Sequence record: OL770073.2
DNA length: 64,000 nt
Source of the DNA: Escherichia phage vB_EcoM-RPN226
Direction: 5' to 3' (one strand)
The notes under the pieces are model-generated. The model saw nothing but the letters and a program-made list of their open reading frames with translations. It ran no database searches and had not been told where the DNA came from. A program made the position numbers and the translations under genes. Shown here in pieces: positions 5,727-55,539 of this stretch (the first letter of the stretch is position 1; the number at the start of each line of letters is the position of its first letter).

Positions 5727-8867
<3,141 letters not shown>

Positions 8868-35710: not shown

Positions 35711-36304
35711 ATGAACACACTGAAGAAAATTGTTGAGTTTATTCGCACTAAACTTGGTTCTGCTATGGCTAAAAATCTATCTGTTGAAGAACAGTATACT
35801 GCTGCAGCAGCAAAACTTCTTGATAAAATTAAAGACCTAAAAACTGCTTCTGTTAAATCTATTAATGAAGAAAAACGTATTCGTGAACTTGTTATCGAAA
35901 AGAATCGACAAGCCGAATCAAAAGAGCGTGAAATTCGCAAACTTCTTTCCGAAGGTCAAGATGTAACAATGCATGCTAAGCTCGGTTTACTATATCGTCG
36001 AACAGCTGAGCAGTTGACTACTAAAGCTGATGGTTATGCTGAAATGCGAATTGAAATCGCCAAGAAAGTAGTTGAGTTAGATGATGCTCGTCAAGAACTT
36101 GCAGTTAAATTGGAATATATCCGTGAAACTCGTGCGGCAAATGCCCTTGGAATTAGTACTGCCGATGATGTAGTTGAAATTGCAGCACTGACTAAGGTTG
36201 ATATTGAAGATACCCTTGCTCGAGTTGAAACCTTTAATGGTAATATTTCCGGGGTTGAAACTACCTCTGCCGATGTTCAGGAATACATTAATTCTCTGAA
36301 ATAA
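35711..36304 (+). CDS. coiled-coil protein, possible PspA/IM30-like
   Basis: 197 aa largely helical; heptad-like charged repeats; weak resemblance ([10 protein letters not shown] region) to the PspA family. Confidence 0.45.
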
Positions 36305-36310
36305 TGATAA

Positions 36311-36324
36311 GGGGCTTCGGCCCC
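36311..36324 (+). terminator. UUCG-tetraloop hairpin (RNA stability element or weak terminator)
   Basis: GGGGCTTCGGCCCC directly after the stop codon; no U-run. Confidence 0.4.
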
Positions 36325-36345
36325 TATTACTTGGAGTAAATAGGA

Positions 36346-36954
36346 ATGAAAATGCAAAGTGATTTCAATTCAATGTTTGAAGAGTTCCAAAGACATGTTG
36401 ATGTTCCAGACCAATTACTAAATGCTCTTAAACGTATGGCAAAAGGACGTAATTACTATTGGGGGTCTTCATATGAAACTGATGAAAGTCTTTCTGGAAG
36501 ATTTTCTAGAGGTAAAAAGTCTTTAATACGTCCTGGAATACTTATTAACAGTATTGAATCAATTCATTCATTGACGTGTGATTTTGATGTTGAATTTACT
36601 GATTTCATTTCTCCTGAATGGACAGTTTGTTATTTAAACGACGATTTTGATTATCTCGGTGTTTATAGTTTAAGTGACGCATGGTTTAAACGTAACTTAC
36701 AAAAGTCAAATTTATTCTATATTGATACTACAGTAAAATTTCAGGGAAAGAAATATTTCTTTACTCTTATAGTTGATTCTGAAACGAAGCATGAAAATAA
36801 ACGTATTCTTAGTAAAAGGAATATCTTGAATATTGTTGATGATCTTTTTGATAAATTCGTGGAAAATCCTAATTTTGAAAGCGATTTATTATTAGAAAAA
36901 TTTGTTAAGGAATGTAGAGAATATGTCAAAGCCATCACTATACCTTCCAAGTAA
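36346..36954 (+). CDS. hypothetical protein
   Basis: 202 aa ORF. Confidence 0.55.
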   Translation: MKMQSDFNSMFEEFQRHVDVPDQLLNALKRMAKGRNYYWGSSYETDESLSGRFSRGKKSLIRPGILINSIESIHSLTCDFDVEFTDFISPEWTVCYLNDDFDYLGVYSLSDAWFKRNLQKSNLFYIDTTVKFQGKKYFFTLIVDSETKHENKRILSKRNILNIVDDLFDKFVENPNFESDLLLEKFVKECREYVKAITIPSK

Positions 36955-37315
36955 ACCTGTGAAGTATGAATTAAAGCGCCAGCTAATTCCTACCGATGTA
37001 TTAATGGGTCCTGTGGTAGCTGTATCATTTGTAATTCTATTGATTGCTGGAATGGTTATAGACGTTATGACAGATATTGAATCTGACGTAATATTTGGAG
37101 CAACGTTAATTCTTCCATTAGCAGTTCCATTTTTATTGGTACCTGTAAATTGGGTAGGATATTGGTATCAAGGAAGGCATTATCGTAAACGTGTACGTGA
37201 ATGGAAAGCTCAGTGTAAAAAGATTAAAAAGGAACACCAGCTTAAACTAAATATGTATGAATTTAATGAAATTATGAAATTTGTTAAGGAATCACGATGC
37301 AAAAGCCAAAACTAA
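36923..37315 (+). CDS. hypothetical membrane protein
   Basis: Start taken at ATG 36923 (MSKPSLYL); two hydrophobic segments. Confidence 0.5.
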   Translation: MSKPSLYLPSKPVKYELKRQLIPTDVLMGPVVAVSFVILLIAGMVIDVMTDIESDVIFGATLILPLAVPFLLVPVNWVGYWYQGRHYRKRVREWKAQCKKIKKEHQLKLNMYEFNEIMKFVKESRCKSQN

Positions 37316-37659
37316 ATAAAGTCAAATATTCTTTTTCTGAGTCATTTTTAATTTTTGCTGTGGCGTTGGCTGCAGCTCTTGCGGGTAGTCTTTTTGGATT
37401 GTTAATTGACTGTCTTATTTTAAACATCGACGGCACAGTAAATATAACAGAAGTTTGGAGTGAACTTCGTTTTACTATAGCGATTTCATTATTTTCATTC
37501 TTTGGCACCATGCTATTTTTTCATTATGATAATTTTAAAATAAATTGGCAAAGAAAAAAGGATTACAAAATACAATTAAAAGAATATAATAGCTACATGT
37601 CTTATATTGAAAATGAATCAATGAAAGAGTTTGTGATTGATTGCAGGAAATTAAAATGA
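37297..37659 (+). CDS. hypothetical membrane protein
   Basis: 120 aa with hydrophobic helices. Confidence 0.5.
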   Translation: MQKPKLNKVKYSFSESFLIFAVALAAALAGSLFGLLIDCLILNIDGTVNITEVWSELRFTIAISLFSFFGTMLFFHYDNFKINWQRKKDYKIQLKEYNSYMSYIENESMKEFVIDCRKLK

Positions 37660-38096
37660 AAACATTATCAGCTGGTATTATCTTTATGACAGAAGATAAA
37701 GATTTATTTATGGGTCGGGTTACTGGTTCTCGTAAGCCTGGAATGATGGCACATCGCTGGGATATTCCAAAGGGCCATGTAGAAAATTCTGATTTAAGCG
37801 CATTAGATGCAGCACGAAGAGAATGTTTAGAAGAGACTGGTTTTAACAATTATAATCCAGGCCTTCTAGAAGACCTAGGTGTATTTAAATATTCTAGTAA
37901 TAAAGACTTACAGTTATTTTATTATACGATTCCAGTAGAGCATGAGATGTTTAGAAATTGCCATTGCGAGTCTTATTTTGAAAATAAAGATGGTGTTATG
38001 ATTCCAGAGATGGATGCTTTTGCTCTTATTCCTCGTACCCAGTGGCAATATGTGATGGGTCCTTCACTTTATCGAATAATGAACAGCCTCTTTTAA
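37656..38096 (+). CDS. nudE: Nudix hydrolase
   Basis: Nudix-box-like GHVENSDLSALDAARRECLEETGF; position upstream of e as in T4. Confidence 0.75.
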   Translation: MKTLSAGIIFMTEDKDLFMGRVTGSRKPGMMAHRWDIPKGHVENSDLSALDAARRECLEETGFNNYNPGLLEDLGVFKYSSNKDLQLFYYTIPVEHEMFRNCHCESYFENKDGVMIPEMDAFALIPRTQWQYVMGPSLYRIMNSLF

Positions 38097-38899
<803 letters not shown>

Positions 38900-38900
38900 T

Positions 38901-38931
38901 GTTTACTTCCTCCAAGGACTTTGATACTATA
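38901..38931 (+). promoter_or_regulatory. T4-type early promoter
   Basis: GTTTAC...17 bp...GATACTAT. Confidence 0.55.
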
Positions 38932-38957
38932 CATTCATCAACTACTTGGAGGAAATT

Positions 38958-39032
38958 ATGACTCGTATCAATTTAACAACTTCAGAATTATTTCTGGTGG
39001 TAAGGCTTAAACAGTTTACGCTTAAGTATTAA
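38958..39032 (+). pseudogene. denV: truncated remnant of endonuclease V gene (denV)
   Basis: 24-codon ORF MTRINLTTSELFLVVRLKQFTLKY; first 11 residues resemble the recalled T4 DenV N-terminus MTRINLTLVSEL, then diverges and stops. Confidence 0.5.
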
Positions 39033-39043
39033 TATGATATAAT
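39014..39043 (+). promoter_or_regulatory. T4-type early promoter embedded in denV remnant
   Basis: GTTTAC...18 bp...TGATATAAT, 30 nt upstream of next gene. Confidence 0.55.
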
Positions 39044-39073
39044 TACTCTATCAAAACAAACAAGGAAACAAAA

Positions 39074-39670
39074 ATGAAAACGTATCAAGAATTTATCGCC
39101 GAAGCTTCTGTAGGAAAGGTCCAAGGCATTAATAAAGATGAGTGGACTTACCGAGGAAACGGCTTTGACAACCCAGGAAACGGCTTTGACCCTAAAACAG
39201 CCCCTATTGAACGGTATTTAGCTACAAAGGCTTCCGACTTTAAAGCTTTCGCCTGGAAAGGACTTCGCTGGCGTACCGACCTAAATATTGAAGTTGACGG
39301 ACTTAAATTTGCTCATATTGAAGATGTTGTTGCTAGTAACTTGGACGCAGCTTTTGTTAAAGCTGACTTTGACCTTCGTCGCTGGAATTTAAAACTGTTC
39401 TCTAAACAGAAAGGTCCTGTGTTTGTGCCTAAAGCTGGTAAATGGGTTATTGATAATAAATTAGCTAAGGCTGTCAACTACGCTGGTCTTGAATTCGCCA
39501 AGCACAAATCATCATGGAAAGGTCTTGATGCAATGGCTTTCCGTAAAGAATTTGCCGATGTTATGGCTAAAGGCGGCTTTAAGGCAGAAATAGACACCTC
39601 TAAAGGTATGTTTAAGGACGCTAATGTTCAGTACGCTTATGCCGTTGCTAATGCAGCCCGTGGTAATTAA
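39074..39670 (+). CDS. internal-protein-like head protein with capsid targeting sequence (IPIII-like size)
   Basis: N-terminus MKTYQEFIAEA matches the recalled T4 IP leader exactly; 198 aa. Confidence 0.7.
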   Translation: MKTYQEFIAEASVGKVQGINKDEWTYRGNGFDNPGNGFDPKTAPIERYLATKASDFKAFAWKGLRWRTDLNIEVDGLKFAHIEDVVASNLDAAFVKADFDLRRWNLKLFSKQKGPVFVPKAGKWVIDNKLAKAVNYAGLEFAKHKSSWKGLDAMAFRKEFADVMAKGGFKAEIDTSKGMFKDANVQYAYAVANAARGN

Positions 39671-39673
39671 TAA

Positions 39674-39691
39674 GGCCTATACTTAGGCCTA
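39674..39691 (+). terminator. terminator-like hairpin
   Basis: AGGCCTATACTTAGGCCT hairpin after stop; weak U-run. Confidence 0.4.
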
Positions 39692-39847
39692 TTTACATTC
39701 AAATAACATGGGAACAACCTGGACCTCATGATTCTATGAGGGATTCCCGCCAACCTGTAATAAGGTCGAGCCCAAGTGCGGTAATGGGTAAATACAGAAA
39801 TGGACAATTCACGCGCCATGGAATGGCCCAAATTTAGAGAGAATAAA

Positions 39848-40387
39848 ATGAGAACATTTTTAACTGGTCCTTATCTATCCCTGATGAATGCTTTTACACA
39901 CCATTCTGATGCTAGAGTAGAAGAAATTTGTAAGAACGGTTATGCCCCACCATTTGAAGACGTACTCAAGCAGTACTGTACACTTCGTTTAGACGGCGGC
40001 AGACAATCAGGTAAATCGACTGCAGTAACTAATTTTGCTGTTAATTGGCTGCACGACGGTGGAACAGTTATTGTTCTTTCTAATACTTCAGCTTATGCTA
40101 AAATTTCTGCTGGCAACATTAAAAAAGAATTTTCTCGTTATTCTAGCGATGATATTAGATTCCGTTTATTTACTGATTCTGTCCGTAGTTTTATTGGCAA
40201 TGAAGGTTCTAAATTCCGCGGATTAACGCTTTCTCGTATTCTGTATATAATTGACGAGCCTATTAAAGCTCCTGATATGGATAAGATTTACAATGTCCAT
40301 ATTAAAGCAATACAGCACTGCTGCAAAAGCAAATATTGCATCGGCGGTATTGCTCGTCCTCAATTTTTTGTGATTGGAATGCAATGA
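39848..40387 (+). CDS. small P-loop NTPase-like protein
   Basis: Walker A-like GGRQSGKST and Walker B-like LYIIDEP; start set at ATG after GAGAG RBS. Confidence 0.5.
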   Translation: MRTFLTGPYLSLMNAFTHHSDARVEEICKNGYAPPFEDVLKQYCTLRLDGGRQSGKSTAVTNFAVNWLHDGGTVIVLSNTSAYAKISAGNIKKEFSRYSSDDIRFRLFTDSVRSFIGNEGSKFRGLTLSRILYIIDEPIKAPDMDKIYNVHIKAIQHCCKSKYCIGGIARPQFFVIGMQ

Positions 40388-40692
40388 TGACCACTATTGA
40401 AGTTTTTGAGTATTGTTATAACAGCCCAGTATGCAATAAAAGGGCTGTTGTAGAAAATTACGAGATTTACCATTTTAAACCTAAACGATATCGTTTGACT
40501 AAAGGTCCGTTTGCAGGGCAGCAGGTTCTTTGTACTGCTCCTAATGCAAGATTAATGAATAAAATTCCATATTTTACCATGGAATTTATTGATGGGCCTT
40601 TTAAAGGACTAATCACACAGAGTTTAATGGCATATGATTCTGAGCCATTTTTAATTAAAGAGCAATCTTGGATAAATTTATTTTCTAATTGA
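40384..40692 (+). CDS. hypothetical protein
   Basis: ATGATGA overlap with upstream stop; about 102 aa. Confidence 0.5.
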
Positions 40693-40700
40693 GAGGTTAT

Positions 40701-41063
40701 ATGAAAGCATATCAAATTCTTGAAGGCACGCATAAAGGTACTATTTATTTTGAAGACGGTATTCAAGCACGAATTATTGTCTCTAAAACCTTTAAAGAGG
40801 ACTCTTTTGTAGACCCAGAAATTTTCTATGGTTTGCATGCCCGTGAAATTGAAATTGAGCAACAGCCTACAGTTAAAATTGAAGGTGGTCAACACCTGAA
40901 CGTTAACGTTCTGCGCCGTGAAACTCTGGAAGATGCAGTTAAGCATCCAGAAAAATATCCGCAGCTGACCATCCGTGTATCCGGTTATGCAGTTCGCTTT
41001 AACTCTCTGACTCCGGAACAGCAGCGCGACGTTATCGCTCGTACCTTTACCGAGAGTTTGTAA
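40701..41063 (+). CDS. autonomous glycyl radical cofactor (GrcA/YfiD-like)
   Basis: C-terminal glycine-radical motif [27 protein letters not shown]; about 120 aa as GrcA. Confidence 0.75.
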
Positions 41064-41284
41064 TGGCAAAGATAATTATTGAAGGTTCTGAAGATGTGCT
41101 AAATGCTTTCGCCGAGTGGTTTAGTAATTCAGGCGAACAGCAATTTAATGAAGCGTGGAACATGGGTGATATTAGTGGAATTTATCCTACGACAGAAATT
41201 TCTGTTCAGGGATATGGCATTCATGAACCTATTCATTTAGTTGAATATGATTTGGGTACTGGTGAGGAAGTAAAATATGATTGA
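41063..41284 (+). CDS. hypothetical protein
   Basis: 73 aa ORF, start overlaps upstream stop. Confidence 0.5.
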   Translation: MAKIIIEGSEDVLNAFAEWFSNSGEQQFNEAWNMGDISGIYPTTEISVQGYGIHEPIHLVEYDLGTGEEVKYD

Positions 41285-41543
41285 AGATATTAAGGGTTAT
41301 AAGCCACATACTGAAGAGAAAATCGGTAAAGTGAATGCTATCAAAGATGCTGAAGTTCGTTTAGGACTTATTTTTGATGCTTTATATGACGAATTCTGGG
41401 AAGTGCTAAATAATTGCGAAGACTATGAATTCGCGAAGAATTATGCTGAAAGCATCGATCAGTTAACTATTGCTAAAACGAAGCTCAAAGAAGCCAGTAT
41501 GTGGGCTTGTCGCGCAGTGTTTCAACCAGAGGAAAAATATTAA
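41277..41543 (+). CDS. hypothetical protein
   Basis: 88 aa ORF. Confidence 0.5.
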
Positions 41544-41821
41544 TGGCTCAATTAAGCGCAGGGTTTGGTTATGAGTATTATACTGCCCCTCGTCGTGTAT
41601 CTGTTGCTCCTAAGAAAATTCAAAGTCTTGATGACTTCCAGGAAGTAGTCCGTAAAGCTTTCCAGGACTATGCACGTTATCTTAAAGAAGATTCGCAGGA
41701 CTGTCTCGAAGAAGATGAAATTGCTTACTATGAGCAGCGTCTTGAACAGCTTAAAAACCTACATGAGGTTCGTGCAGAAGTTACAAAGTCTATGAATAAA
41801 TTGATTAGATTTAAAGAATAA
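41543..41821 (+). CDS. hypothetical protein
   Basis: Start at ATG overlapping upstream stop (TAATG), GAGG RBS; 92 aa. Confidence 0.5.
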
Positions 41822-41823
41822 CT

Positions 41824-41853
41824 GTTTACTTTTCCTCTTGACTGTGGTATAAT
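41824..41853 (+). promoter_or_regulatory. T4-type early promoter (regB)
   Basis: GTTTAC...TGTGGTATAAT, followed by GAGGAG RBS. Confidence 0.65.
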
Positions 41854-41880
41854 TTTTCTATCAGTTAAGAGGAGAATAAC

Positions 41881-42342
41881 ATGACTATCAACACAGAAGT
41901 TTTTATCCGTCGAAATAAACTCCGTCGTCACTTTGAGTCGGAGTTTCGTCAAATTAACAATGAGATTCGTGAGGCATCAAAAGCAGCAGGGGTCTCATCG
42001 TTTCATCTAAAATATTCTCAGCATCTTCTTGATCGTGCAATTCAACGGGAGATCGATGAGACATATGTTTTTGAATTATTCCATAAAATAAAAGACCATG
42101 TTTTAGAAGTTAATGAATTCCTGAGTATGCCTCCGCGTCCTGACATTGACGAGGATTTTATTGATGGGGTTGAATATCGTCCTGGGCGTTTAGAAATCAC
42201 AGATGGAAATCTTTGGCTTGGATTTACAGTTTGTAAACCTAATGCGAAGTTCAAAGACCCGTCACTTCAATGTAGGATGGCCATTATCAACAGTCGTCGT
42301 TTACCAGGAAAGGCTTCTAAAGCAGTAATTAAAACTCAATGA
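41881..42342 (+). CDS. regB: site-specific endoribonuclease RegB
   Basis: 153 aa MTINTEVFIRRNKLRRHFESEF...; length and sequence consistent with T4 RegB as recalled. Confidence 0.85.
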   Translation: MTINTEVFIRRNKLRRHFESEFRQINNEIREASKAAGVSSFHLKYSQHLLDRAIQREIDETYVFELFHKIKDHVLEVNEFLSMPPRPDIDEDFIDGVEYRPGRLEITDGNLWLGFTVCKPNAKFKDPSLQCRMAIINSRRLPGKASKAVIKTQ

Positions 42343-42349
42343 GGTAAGC

Positions 42350-42895
42350 ATGAGAAAAGCACTACTCGCTGGTCTATTGGCCATTTCAATGATGGCACAT
42401 AGCTCCGAGCATACTTTCAGTAATGTCCAACTCGATAACATGCGTTACGCGTATCAATTCGGGGAACAATTTTCTAAGGATGGAAAATATAAAACACACA
42501 AAAATATCCACAAGAGCGGATTAGGTCATATAATGGCTGCTATTTTATGGCAAGAAAGCTCTGCCGGAGTTAATTTAAAATCTAAGCCAAAGCATCATGC
42601 CTACGGAATGTTCCAAAATTATTTGCCGACCATGCGTGCAAGAGTTAAGGAACTTGGTTATAATATGACCGATGCCGAAATAAAAAGAATGTTGAATAAA
42701 CGGTCCAATTCAGCTTCCTGGGCGTACATTGAACTTTCTTATTGGTTAAATATACATAAGGGTGATATAAGAAAGGCAATATCCTCTTATAATTCGGGAT
42801 GGAATGTTAAAGCAGGTTCTAAATATGCTTCTGAAGTCCTAGAAAAGGCTAATTACCTTAAAAATAATAAACTTTTGGAAATAGTAAATGACTAA
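42350..42895 (+). CDS. secreted protein, possibly transglycosylase-like (vs.1 position)
   Basis: N-terminal signal peptide MRKALLAGLLAISMMAHS; 181 aa; fold not verifiable by eye. Confidence 0.5.
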   Translation: MRKALLAGLLAISMMAHSSEHTFSNVQLDNMRYAYQFGEQFSKDGKYKTHKNIHKSGLGHIMAAILWQESSAGVNLKSKPKHHAYGMFQNYLPTMRARVKELGYNMTDAEIKRMLNKRSNSASWAYIELSYWLNIHKGDIRKAISSYNSGWNVKAGSKYASEVLEKANYLKNNKLLEIVND

Positions 42896-55065: not shown

Positions 55066-55539
55066 ATGTTATTGACTGGCAAATTGTACAAAGAAGAAAA
55101 ACAAAAATTTTATAATGCACAAAACGGTAAATGCTTAATTTGCCAACGAGAACTAAATCCTGATGTTCAAGCTAATCACCTTGACCATGACCATGAATTA
55201 AATGGACCGAAAGCTGGAAAGGTACGTGGATTGCTATGTAATCTCTGTAATGCTGCAGAAGGTCAAATGAAGCATAAATTCAATCGTTCTGGCTTAAAGG
55301 GACAAGGTGTTGATTATCTTGAATGGCTAGAAAATTTACTTACTTATTTAAAATCCGATTACACCCAAAATAATATTCACCCTAACTTCGTTGGAGATAA
55401 ATCAAAGGAATTTTCTCGTTTAGGAAAAGAGGAAATGATGGCTGAGATGCTTCAAAGAGGATTTGAATATAATGAATCTGACACTAAAACACAATTAATA
55501 GCTTCATTTAAGAAGCAGCTTAGAAAGAGTTTAAAATGA
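55066..55539 (+). CDS. 49: endonuclease VII (Holliday junction resolvase)
   Basis: 157 aa MLLTGKLYKEEKQKFYNAQNGKCLICQREL...; matches T4 gp49 as recalled. Confidence 0.9.
   Translation: MLLTGKLYKEEKQKFYNAQNGKCLICQRELNPDVQANHLDHDHELNGPKAGKVRGLLCNLCNAAEGQMKHKFNRSGLKGQGVDYLEWLENLLTYLKSDYTQNNIHPNFVGDKSKEFSRLGKEEMMAEMLQRGFEYNESDTKTQLIASFKKQLRKSLK

Follow-up and report, generated by a model that had tools for sequence, protein, structure and literature searches.

Gene Order and Regulatory Elements of the Locus

The window, i.e., the whole stretch of 64,000 nt of Escherichia phage vB_EcoM-RPN226 that was analyzed, belongs to a T4-like phage of the genus Tequatrovirus. RB32/RB33/HMD-9-type phages were the best whole-region matches, with about 95% identity, and the phage collection searched contained no record nearly identical to the stretch. 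The locus lies on the plus strand and begins with nudE (37641-38096) and the lysozyme gene e (38133-38621). They are followed by IP93 (38618-38899), an intact gene for an internal head protein of 93 amino acids (PHROG 3499 'internal head protein', E 1e-46). IP93 precedes denV in HMD-9 and in Lutter as well, and in this Tequatrovirus clade it is conserved as the gene directly upstream of denV. On the minus strand, a 114-codon antisense ORF (38590-38934) extends across the entire IP93 gene. It is open also in HMD-9 (L001 1991-2335, minus strand), and most likely it arises from the codon composition and the conservation of the sequence and is not a gene.

Downstream of IP93 the predicted early promoter of denV has been retained (38901-38930). 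It comprises GTTTAC (38901-38906) and, with an 18-nt spacer, TG-n-TACTAT, which ends at 38930. The homologous position in Lutter is annotated 'promoter' (L008 942-971), and T4 denV carries the same GTTTAC...TGATACTAT arrangement; a generic sigma-70 scan missed the site, which was too weak for it. A perfect 10-bp inverted repeat, UUCCUCCAAG / CUUGGAGGAA, spans 38907-38954 (arms 38907-38916 and 38945-38954). Its 3' arm holds the denV Shine-Dalgarno sequence (GGAGG, 38948-38952), and its loop contains the -10 box. The minimum free energy of the fold was -18.5 kcal/mol (z = -3.68), and one of 200 shuffled sequences was equally stable. T4 precedents for an arrangement that sequesters the Shine-Dalgarno sequence are the genes e, 49 and I-TevI. 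Because of these precedents and of the description of promoter/stem-loop cassettes (PeSLs; PMC2839356), the Shine-Dalgarno sequence would be sequestered on read-through transcripts from upstream and free on transcripts that start within the loop. By its layout, the segment 38901-38954 can be classified as a PeSL-like cassette in the sense of that study.

The next feature is an ORF of 24 codons (38958-39032, ATG...TAA), which reads MTRINLTTSELFLVVRLKQFTLKY*. It had first been noticed in a sequence-only reading of the window as a truncated denV beginning with MTRINLTTSEL, and it is indeed present with exactly these coordinates.

A second predicted early promoter follows at 39014-39043 (GTTTAC 39014-39019, TG-n-TATAAT with TATAAT at 39038-39043). 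Scored as TTTACG-17-TATAAT, with 10 of 12 consensus positions and a TG-extended -10 box, it outranked all other sigma-70 matches of the 3-kb region, and it has the sequence features of a T4-type early (sigma-70) promoter; the T4 IP genes share the GTTTAC motif. The promoter is kept in HMD-9 and HEMP5, and its homolog in Lutter is annotated 'promoter' (L008 1684-1713). The initial proposal of an early promoter embedded in the ORF was right about the consensus site, not about its placement: the ORF overlaps only the -35 half, and the sequence is not derived from denV. In relatives it is the native promoter that lies behind the stop codon of the gene IP84, in agreement with the proposal that it serves the next IP-like gene.

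This next gene (39074-39670) is an intact ipIII ortholog, which encodes an internal virion protein of 198 amino acids with 90% identity to T4 IPIII over the full length and with matches to PHROG 5341 (E 3e-114) and Pfam PF26861 (Phage_T4_IpIII). The sequence-only reading had thus characterized it correctly as IP-like. No terminator-like site was found when 38930-39074 was scanned, and therefore transcription of ipIII is predicted to start at both promoters, its own and the upstream one of denV, which are now 113 nt apart. An Rfam scan of 38500-40000 yielded sub-threshold chance matches only. Three nucleotides past the ipIII stop codon lies a perfect 7-bp GC-rich hairpin (39673-39690, AGGCCTATACTTAGGCCT), which is terminator-like on both strands and poor in its T-run. 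A vs.8 homolog follows downstream of ipIII on the same strand.

The ORF Joins Seven denV Codons to the Tail of IP84

The first 21 nt of the ORF (38958-38978, codons 1-7, MTRINLT) are identical to the denV start of HMD-9 at 21 of 21 positions. This 21-mer had a single site in the 64-kb window when up to three mismatches were allowed, and none in 100 shuffles. It terminates a gap-free alignment of window 38000-38978 with HMD-9 (PV287714; L001 1401-2379), which ends exactly at denV nt 21. Within this alignment, 38600-38978 matches L001 2001-2379 with 97.6% identity and covers IP93, the denV promoter, the Shine-Dalgarno sequence and denV nt 1-21. Because the 21-nt match is the end of an unbroken alignment, the homology is founded on synteny and not on the seven residues by themselves. 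As in a denV pseudogene, homology runs without a break from the upstream neighbour through promoter and Shine-Dalgarno sequence to the denV start codon.

The proposed alignment with the 5' end of T4 denV was also carried out. T4 itself aligned only at window 38922-38971, i.e., with the denV leader and the first 14 nt, at 77% identity; this match is weak, and therefore the evidence for denV was drawn from closer relatives and from synteny, which place the similarity to denV far beyond chance. The junction context between IP93 and denV was recovered from 240 records, 219 of which run on into an intact denV, while about 17-21 do not.

The second part of the ORF has another origin. Window 38966-39102 corresponds to HMD-9 L001 2995-3131 at 94% identity, and this segment comprises the end of the IP84 coding sequence with the stop codon, then the promoter and the start codon that come next. 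In relatives IP84 encodes a protein of 84 amino acids that matches PHROG 2667 'internal head protein'. After the junction, 32 nt of the IP84 3' end are retained (38979-39010); in the native frame they read ...NFRIISGGKA* with the stop codon at 39008-39010, and this C-terminus matches FNNFGIISGGKA of HMD-9 IP84. An identification of IP84 as T4 ipII was considered and rejected, as the likeness is confined to the capsid-targeting sequence of 8-11 residues.

The alignments on the denV side and on the IP84 side overlap in the heptanucleotide TTTAACA (38972-38978). HMD-9 has two copies of it, one in denV codons 5-7 (2373) and the other 628 nt further on, where IP84 is about to end (3001); the copies of Lutter are at 1013 and 1642, with a distance of 629 nt. 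A direct repeat thus flanks the missing segment in intact relatives, and one copy of this 7-nt microhomology is left at the junction. As 628 equals 3x209 + 1, the reading frame of denV continues into the IP84 tail out of register, and 'TTSELFLVV...' is a +1 frame reading of the C-terminal IP84 codons ...FNNFRIISGGKA*. The jump is out of frame, and hence the likeness of 'TSEL' to 'VSEL' of DenV is coincidental. The resemblance to denV that had been noticed originally therefore holds for codons 1-7 and not for 'TSEL', and the denV-derived part of the ORF is restricted to these 21 nt. The shifted frame skips the IP84 stop codon, runs on through intergenic DNA and ends at 39030-39032, within the spacer of the next promoter. 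It is because the frameshifted ORF reads beyond the old IP84 stop that it overlaps the ipIII promoter at all.

The gene order in HMD-9 is e, IP93, denV, IP84, a gene of 132 amino acids, and IPIII, and the order in Lutter is e, IP93, promoter, denV, IP84, promoter, and IPIII. A single gap is sufficient to align the window with Lutter (38100-38978 with L008 140-1019, and 38972-39800 with L008 1642-2452). In HMD-9, the segment with ipIII (L001 3584-4902) corresponds to window 39074-40391. A model with two deletions, in which the 132-aa gene of HMD-9 would be the second loss, was rejected, as Lutter-type genomes lack that gene. Because one gap aligns the window to Lutter, the 132-aa gene is a separate insertion or polymorphism. 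It lies between IP84 and ipIII (HMD-9 L001 3103-3501), belongs to PHROG 15461 of unknown function and has no counterpart in either Lutter or the window. It has an IP-type N-terminus (MKTYQEFIAE) and is bordered on both sides by repeated capsid-targeting-sequence (CTS) codons, so that it looks like a cassette that was gained or lost through recombination in the CTS repeat.

The junction was searched for in other collections. A 41-nt junction query had no match in 50,697 phage records, and exact junction 20- to 23-mers gave 0 matches in IMG/VR, JGI metagenomes and GTDB genomes. Among the collections searched, the junction was carried only by one Logan contig, which had been located via its exact IPIII protein. 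This assembly (SRR27297327) is 100% identical to window 36074-42670 over 6597 nt, junction included. The contig may share its read set with the window, and it therefore excludes an assembler-specific error, not a deletion that is specific for the stock or arose in the laboratory.

A Probable Single Deletion between Short Direct Repeats

It is highly probable that the feature is the scar of one microhomology-flanked deletion, that its product is non-functional, and that the phage is DenV-null. According to the gene orders of Lutter, F25 and SF2-1, the ancestral order would have been e, IP93, promoter-denV, IP84, and promoter-ipIII. The anatomy of the junction suggests a single event of illegitimate recombination or replication slippage between the two TTTAACA copies. 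The deletion of 628-629 bp (compared with HMD-9 and Lutter) would have removed denV codons 8-137 and, of the 84 codons of IP84, approximately the initial 73. Still present in the window are the denV early promoter, the stem-loop and the ribosome-binding site, seven denV codons joined out of frame to the IP84 tail as the 24-codon ORF, and the ipIII gene with its promoter, both untouched. The direction of the event, a deletion here rather than an insertion in the relatives, is strongly indicated, because the seven stranded denV codons and the detached tail of IP84 make sense only as remnants.

Comparable events are known from laboratory T4, in which microhomology-flanked deletions of 0.7-6 kb form readily and the neighbouring ipIII was lost repeatedly (Srikant et al. 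2022, eLife, PMC9391042). In both cases non-essential early genes were lost between short direct repeats. The T4 deletions arose under experimental selection and compensated for amplifications.

The original proposal had left open whether denV was deleted or replaced in a gene swap at a plastic locus. The deletion at this internal-protein locus is supported by the remnant together with the collinear intact relatives. A swap, in which an incoming IP-type cassette would have replaced denV through PeSLs or through the conserved 5' ends that encode the capsid-targeting sequence, is very unlikely. In its favour, the locus is plastic (e, ipIII, ipII and denV in T4; e and ipIV in T2; the extra 132-aa gene in HMD-9), and T4-type phages have been described to shuffle modules by means of PeSLs (Arbiol et al. 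2010, PMC2839356; Comeau et al. 2014, PMC4122927). However, 38600-39700 contains no DNA that is foreign to Lutter-type relatives, and one gap of 629 nt aligns all of it. As nothing foreign was inserted, the event was not a gene swap but a simple deletion of 628-629 bp, with the remainder collinear with Lutter. Furthermore, the junction lies at a 7-nt repeat inside two coding sequences and not in PeSLs or CTS repeats, both flanking promoters (38901-38930 and 39014-39043) survive, and remnants of both genes are present, which is not the outcome of a PeSL excision. The locus shares with PeSL systems (PMC2839356) the hyperplastic region with genes between early-promoter/stem-loop cassettes, one of which was kept at 38901-38954. 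It differs in that the crossover took place in coding DNA and left a scar ORF instead of a single chimeric PeSL.

The possibility that the scar ORF is a functional small gene, or that the rearrangement was adaptive, for example by boosting ipIII through tandem promoters or by discarding DenV or IP84, is highly improbable. The ORF does retain a promoter, a strong Shine-Dalgarno sequence and an ATG, denV loss recurs independently in at least five lineages, and T4 IPIII is known as an anti-defence factor (PMC9391042). On the other hand, the ORF was found in no other record searched and hence no conservation supports a function, out-of-frame or intergenic read-through accounts for 17 of the 24 codons, and the loss of a dispensable gene under headful genome-size pressure predicts recurrence equally well. 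An artefact of sequencing or assembly, in which the phage would actually possess denV and IP84 and the assembly would have collapsed across them, can practically be dismissed: a 5' sequence of about 30 nt does recur among the IP genes and could confuse assemblers, but the junction is not at this CTS repeat, the 7-nt repeat is far too short for a collapse, the SRR27297327 assembly reproduces the identical sequence over 6.6 kb, and comparable natural deletions are present in several deposited genomes.

Probable Absence of a Functional DenV

To be active, DenV depends on Thr2, the alpha-amino group of which is the nucleophile after removal of the methionine, and on Glu23, which is also catalytic. 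The scar product shares the first seven residues with T4 endonuclease V (DenV, PF03013), Thr2 included. Unlike the enzyme, it lacks 131 of the 138 residues, including Glu23 and the DNA-binding surface: it diverges past residue 7 and ends at residue 24, and position 23 is a Lys from an unrelated frame. The product had no match among Pfam families (0) and PHROG families (0), while DenV of HMD-9, used as a control, was recognized by Pyr_excise (PF03013, E 3e-14) and by PHROG 1183 (E 3e-62). It has neither the Pyr_excise profile, a domain of about 80 residues, nor the pair of Thr2 and Glu23. On the basis of its sequence the scar product cannot be an enzyme, and the 24-residue peptide would be a non-functional by-product.

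A second denV was not found by tblastn and blastn across the 64-kb window, in agreement with the prediction that no intact copy lies elsewhere, which was thereby verified for the window as part of the genome of about 167 kb. The only, weak tblastn match to DenV was at 55378-55524 in gene 49 (55066-55539), at the C-terminus of endonuclease VII. The 49 C-terminal residues of gp49 have 41% identity with DenV residues 56-101 (E 0.002 without composition correction). As a denV paralog this site was rejected, since it is probably a chance match of gp49.

In phages denV is essentially a single-copy gene (1125 places in 1119 records), and in this clade it sits at the locus studied here. From the 64 kb of the about 167-kb genome that the window covers, the phage is very likely to be DenV-null, and the suggestion that it lacks its own pyrimidine-dimer glycosylase is probably correct, as no other denV is present in the window and the 24-mer matches no family. 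Such a phage would make neither a pyrimidine-dimer glycosylase nor IP84, and, in the absence of the glycosylase, its dark UV sensitivity is predicted to be about like that of T2 or of T4 denV mutants.

Other Losses of denV in Related Phages

Several relatives were found to have lost denV in other ways. In 235Ecol030PP, Shinka, G8, JM17, G4498 and FL23, denV nt 9 is joined to about nt 307. In HEMP5, denV nt ~99 is joined to the 3' end of IP84, and in CT01, denV nt ~112 is joined to ipIII codon 2, so that both denV and IP84 are missing. In each of these three resolved alleles the junction is at a short homology. The Mosigvirus ESCO47 has a truncated denV of 42 amino acids. Counted from these sequences, there are at least four other independent deletion or truncation alleles of denV in relatives. 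The alleles of the 235Ecol030PP group, HEMP5 and CT01 resemble the present one in that they are at the same locus and share the upstream IP93, promoter and Shine-Dalgarno sequence. The break points differ: they are at denV nt 9, ~99 and ~112, and the break at nt 21 in this phage matches none of them.

Two of these genomes have peculiarities of their own. In Shigella phage CT01 (L011 1710-1830), the deletion took the promoter, the Shine-Dalgarno sequence and the start codon of ipIII itself. The annotated ipIII of CT01 starts at an ATG that is borrowed from denV codons 36-37 (MFKTYQEF...), and both the expression of ipIII and its capsid targeting may be altered. ESCO47 (L009) has, in addition to the 42-aa 'endonuclease V' (1501-1629), a 72-aa 'pyrimidine dimer DNA glycosylase' (2658-2876) three genes downstream. 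The latter may be part of a denV that has been moved, or it may be annotated wrongly.

T2 (LC348380) has the order e, promoter, ipIV and vs.8-like sequence, and between e and vs.8 neither blastn nor tblastn revealed a trace of denV. An identity of the present phage with T2 was considered and rejected on account of this different locus and because RB32/RB33/HMD-9-like phages gave the best whole-region matches. T2 has classically been regarded as more UV-sensitive than T4, the 'u'/'v' locus difference. Reportedly, this difference between T2 and T4 goes back to Streisinger in 1956 and Harm in 1963. The absence of denV from T2 is consistent with its greater sensitivity. T2 is similar to the present phage in that both are T-even phages from nature with no denV in the interval from e to vs.8, and the present phage is predicted to have the DenV-null, UV-sensitive phenotype of T2. 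The difference is that denV is cleanly absent from T2, whereas this phage keeps the denV promoter, the Shine-Dalgarno sequence and seven codons. In the open-access literature searched, no sequence-level description of a natural denV loss in T2 or Tequatrovirus was found.

In the event described here a dispensable accessory gene became a pseudogene, which is nothing unusual; the allele is new, the kind of event is known. For annotation this means that the 24-codon ORF is a denV pseudogene or a deletion scar and not a gene, and that a phage without DenV and without one internal head protein is to be expected. The predicted dark UV sensitivity, like that of T2 or T4 v-, matters for UV-exposed applications and for UV-inactivation protocols. 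The locus illustrates at base resolution how accessory genes of T-even phages are lost via short-homology deletions. Independent denV loss in about 7% of the genomes with this gene order lends modest natural-history support to the view that phage-borne dimer repair is dispensable in enteric settings.

That coliphages of the T4 genus were recurrently selected for losing denV, and that the loss was not merely tolerated, is very unlikely. If it were so, DenV or the co-deleted, injected IP84 might be a liability in some hosts, or the removal of about 630 bp might bring a second early promoter beside the anti-defence gene ipIII. The window would then represent one of at least five independent, convergent events within the same few hundred bases.

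The vs.8 Region Downstream of ipIII

The stretch of about 100 nt that follows the last IP gene (ACATGGGAACAACCTGGACCTCATGATTCT...GGGTAAATACAG, 39695-39800) is conserved in T2 (L006 about 6100-6440, reverse strand), HMD-9 (L001 4208-4400) and T4. The conservation persists though the upstream gene varies and can be ipIV, ipIII or denV. The segment 39695-39800 had no Rfam match, and its folding was weakly better than that of shuffled sequences (z = -2.0). It overlaps an ORF that encodes the N-terminus of Vs.8.

Compared with T4, the vs.8 homolog is split. The ORF 39736-39837 corresponds to Vs.8 residues 1-32 with 94% identity, and the rest of vs.8 (residues 26-219, 83% identity) is encoded in another frame from 39800 onward (39800-40387). 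The annotation of vs.8 in HMD-9 covers only the part that begins with MRTFLTG. Either the frameshift is common in this clade, or the N-terminal extension of T4 lies outside the real protein.
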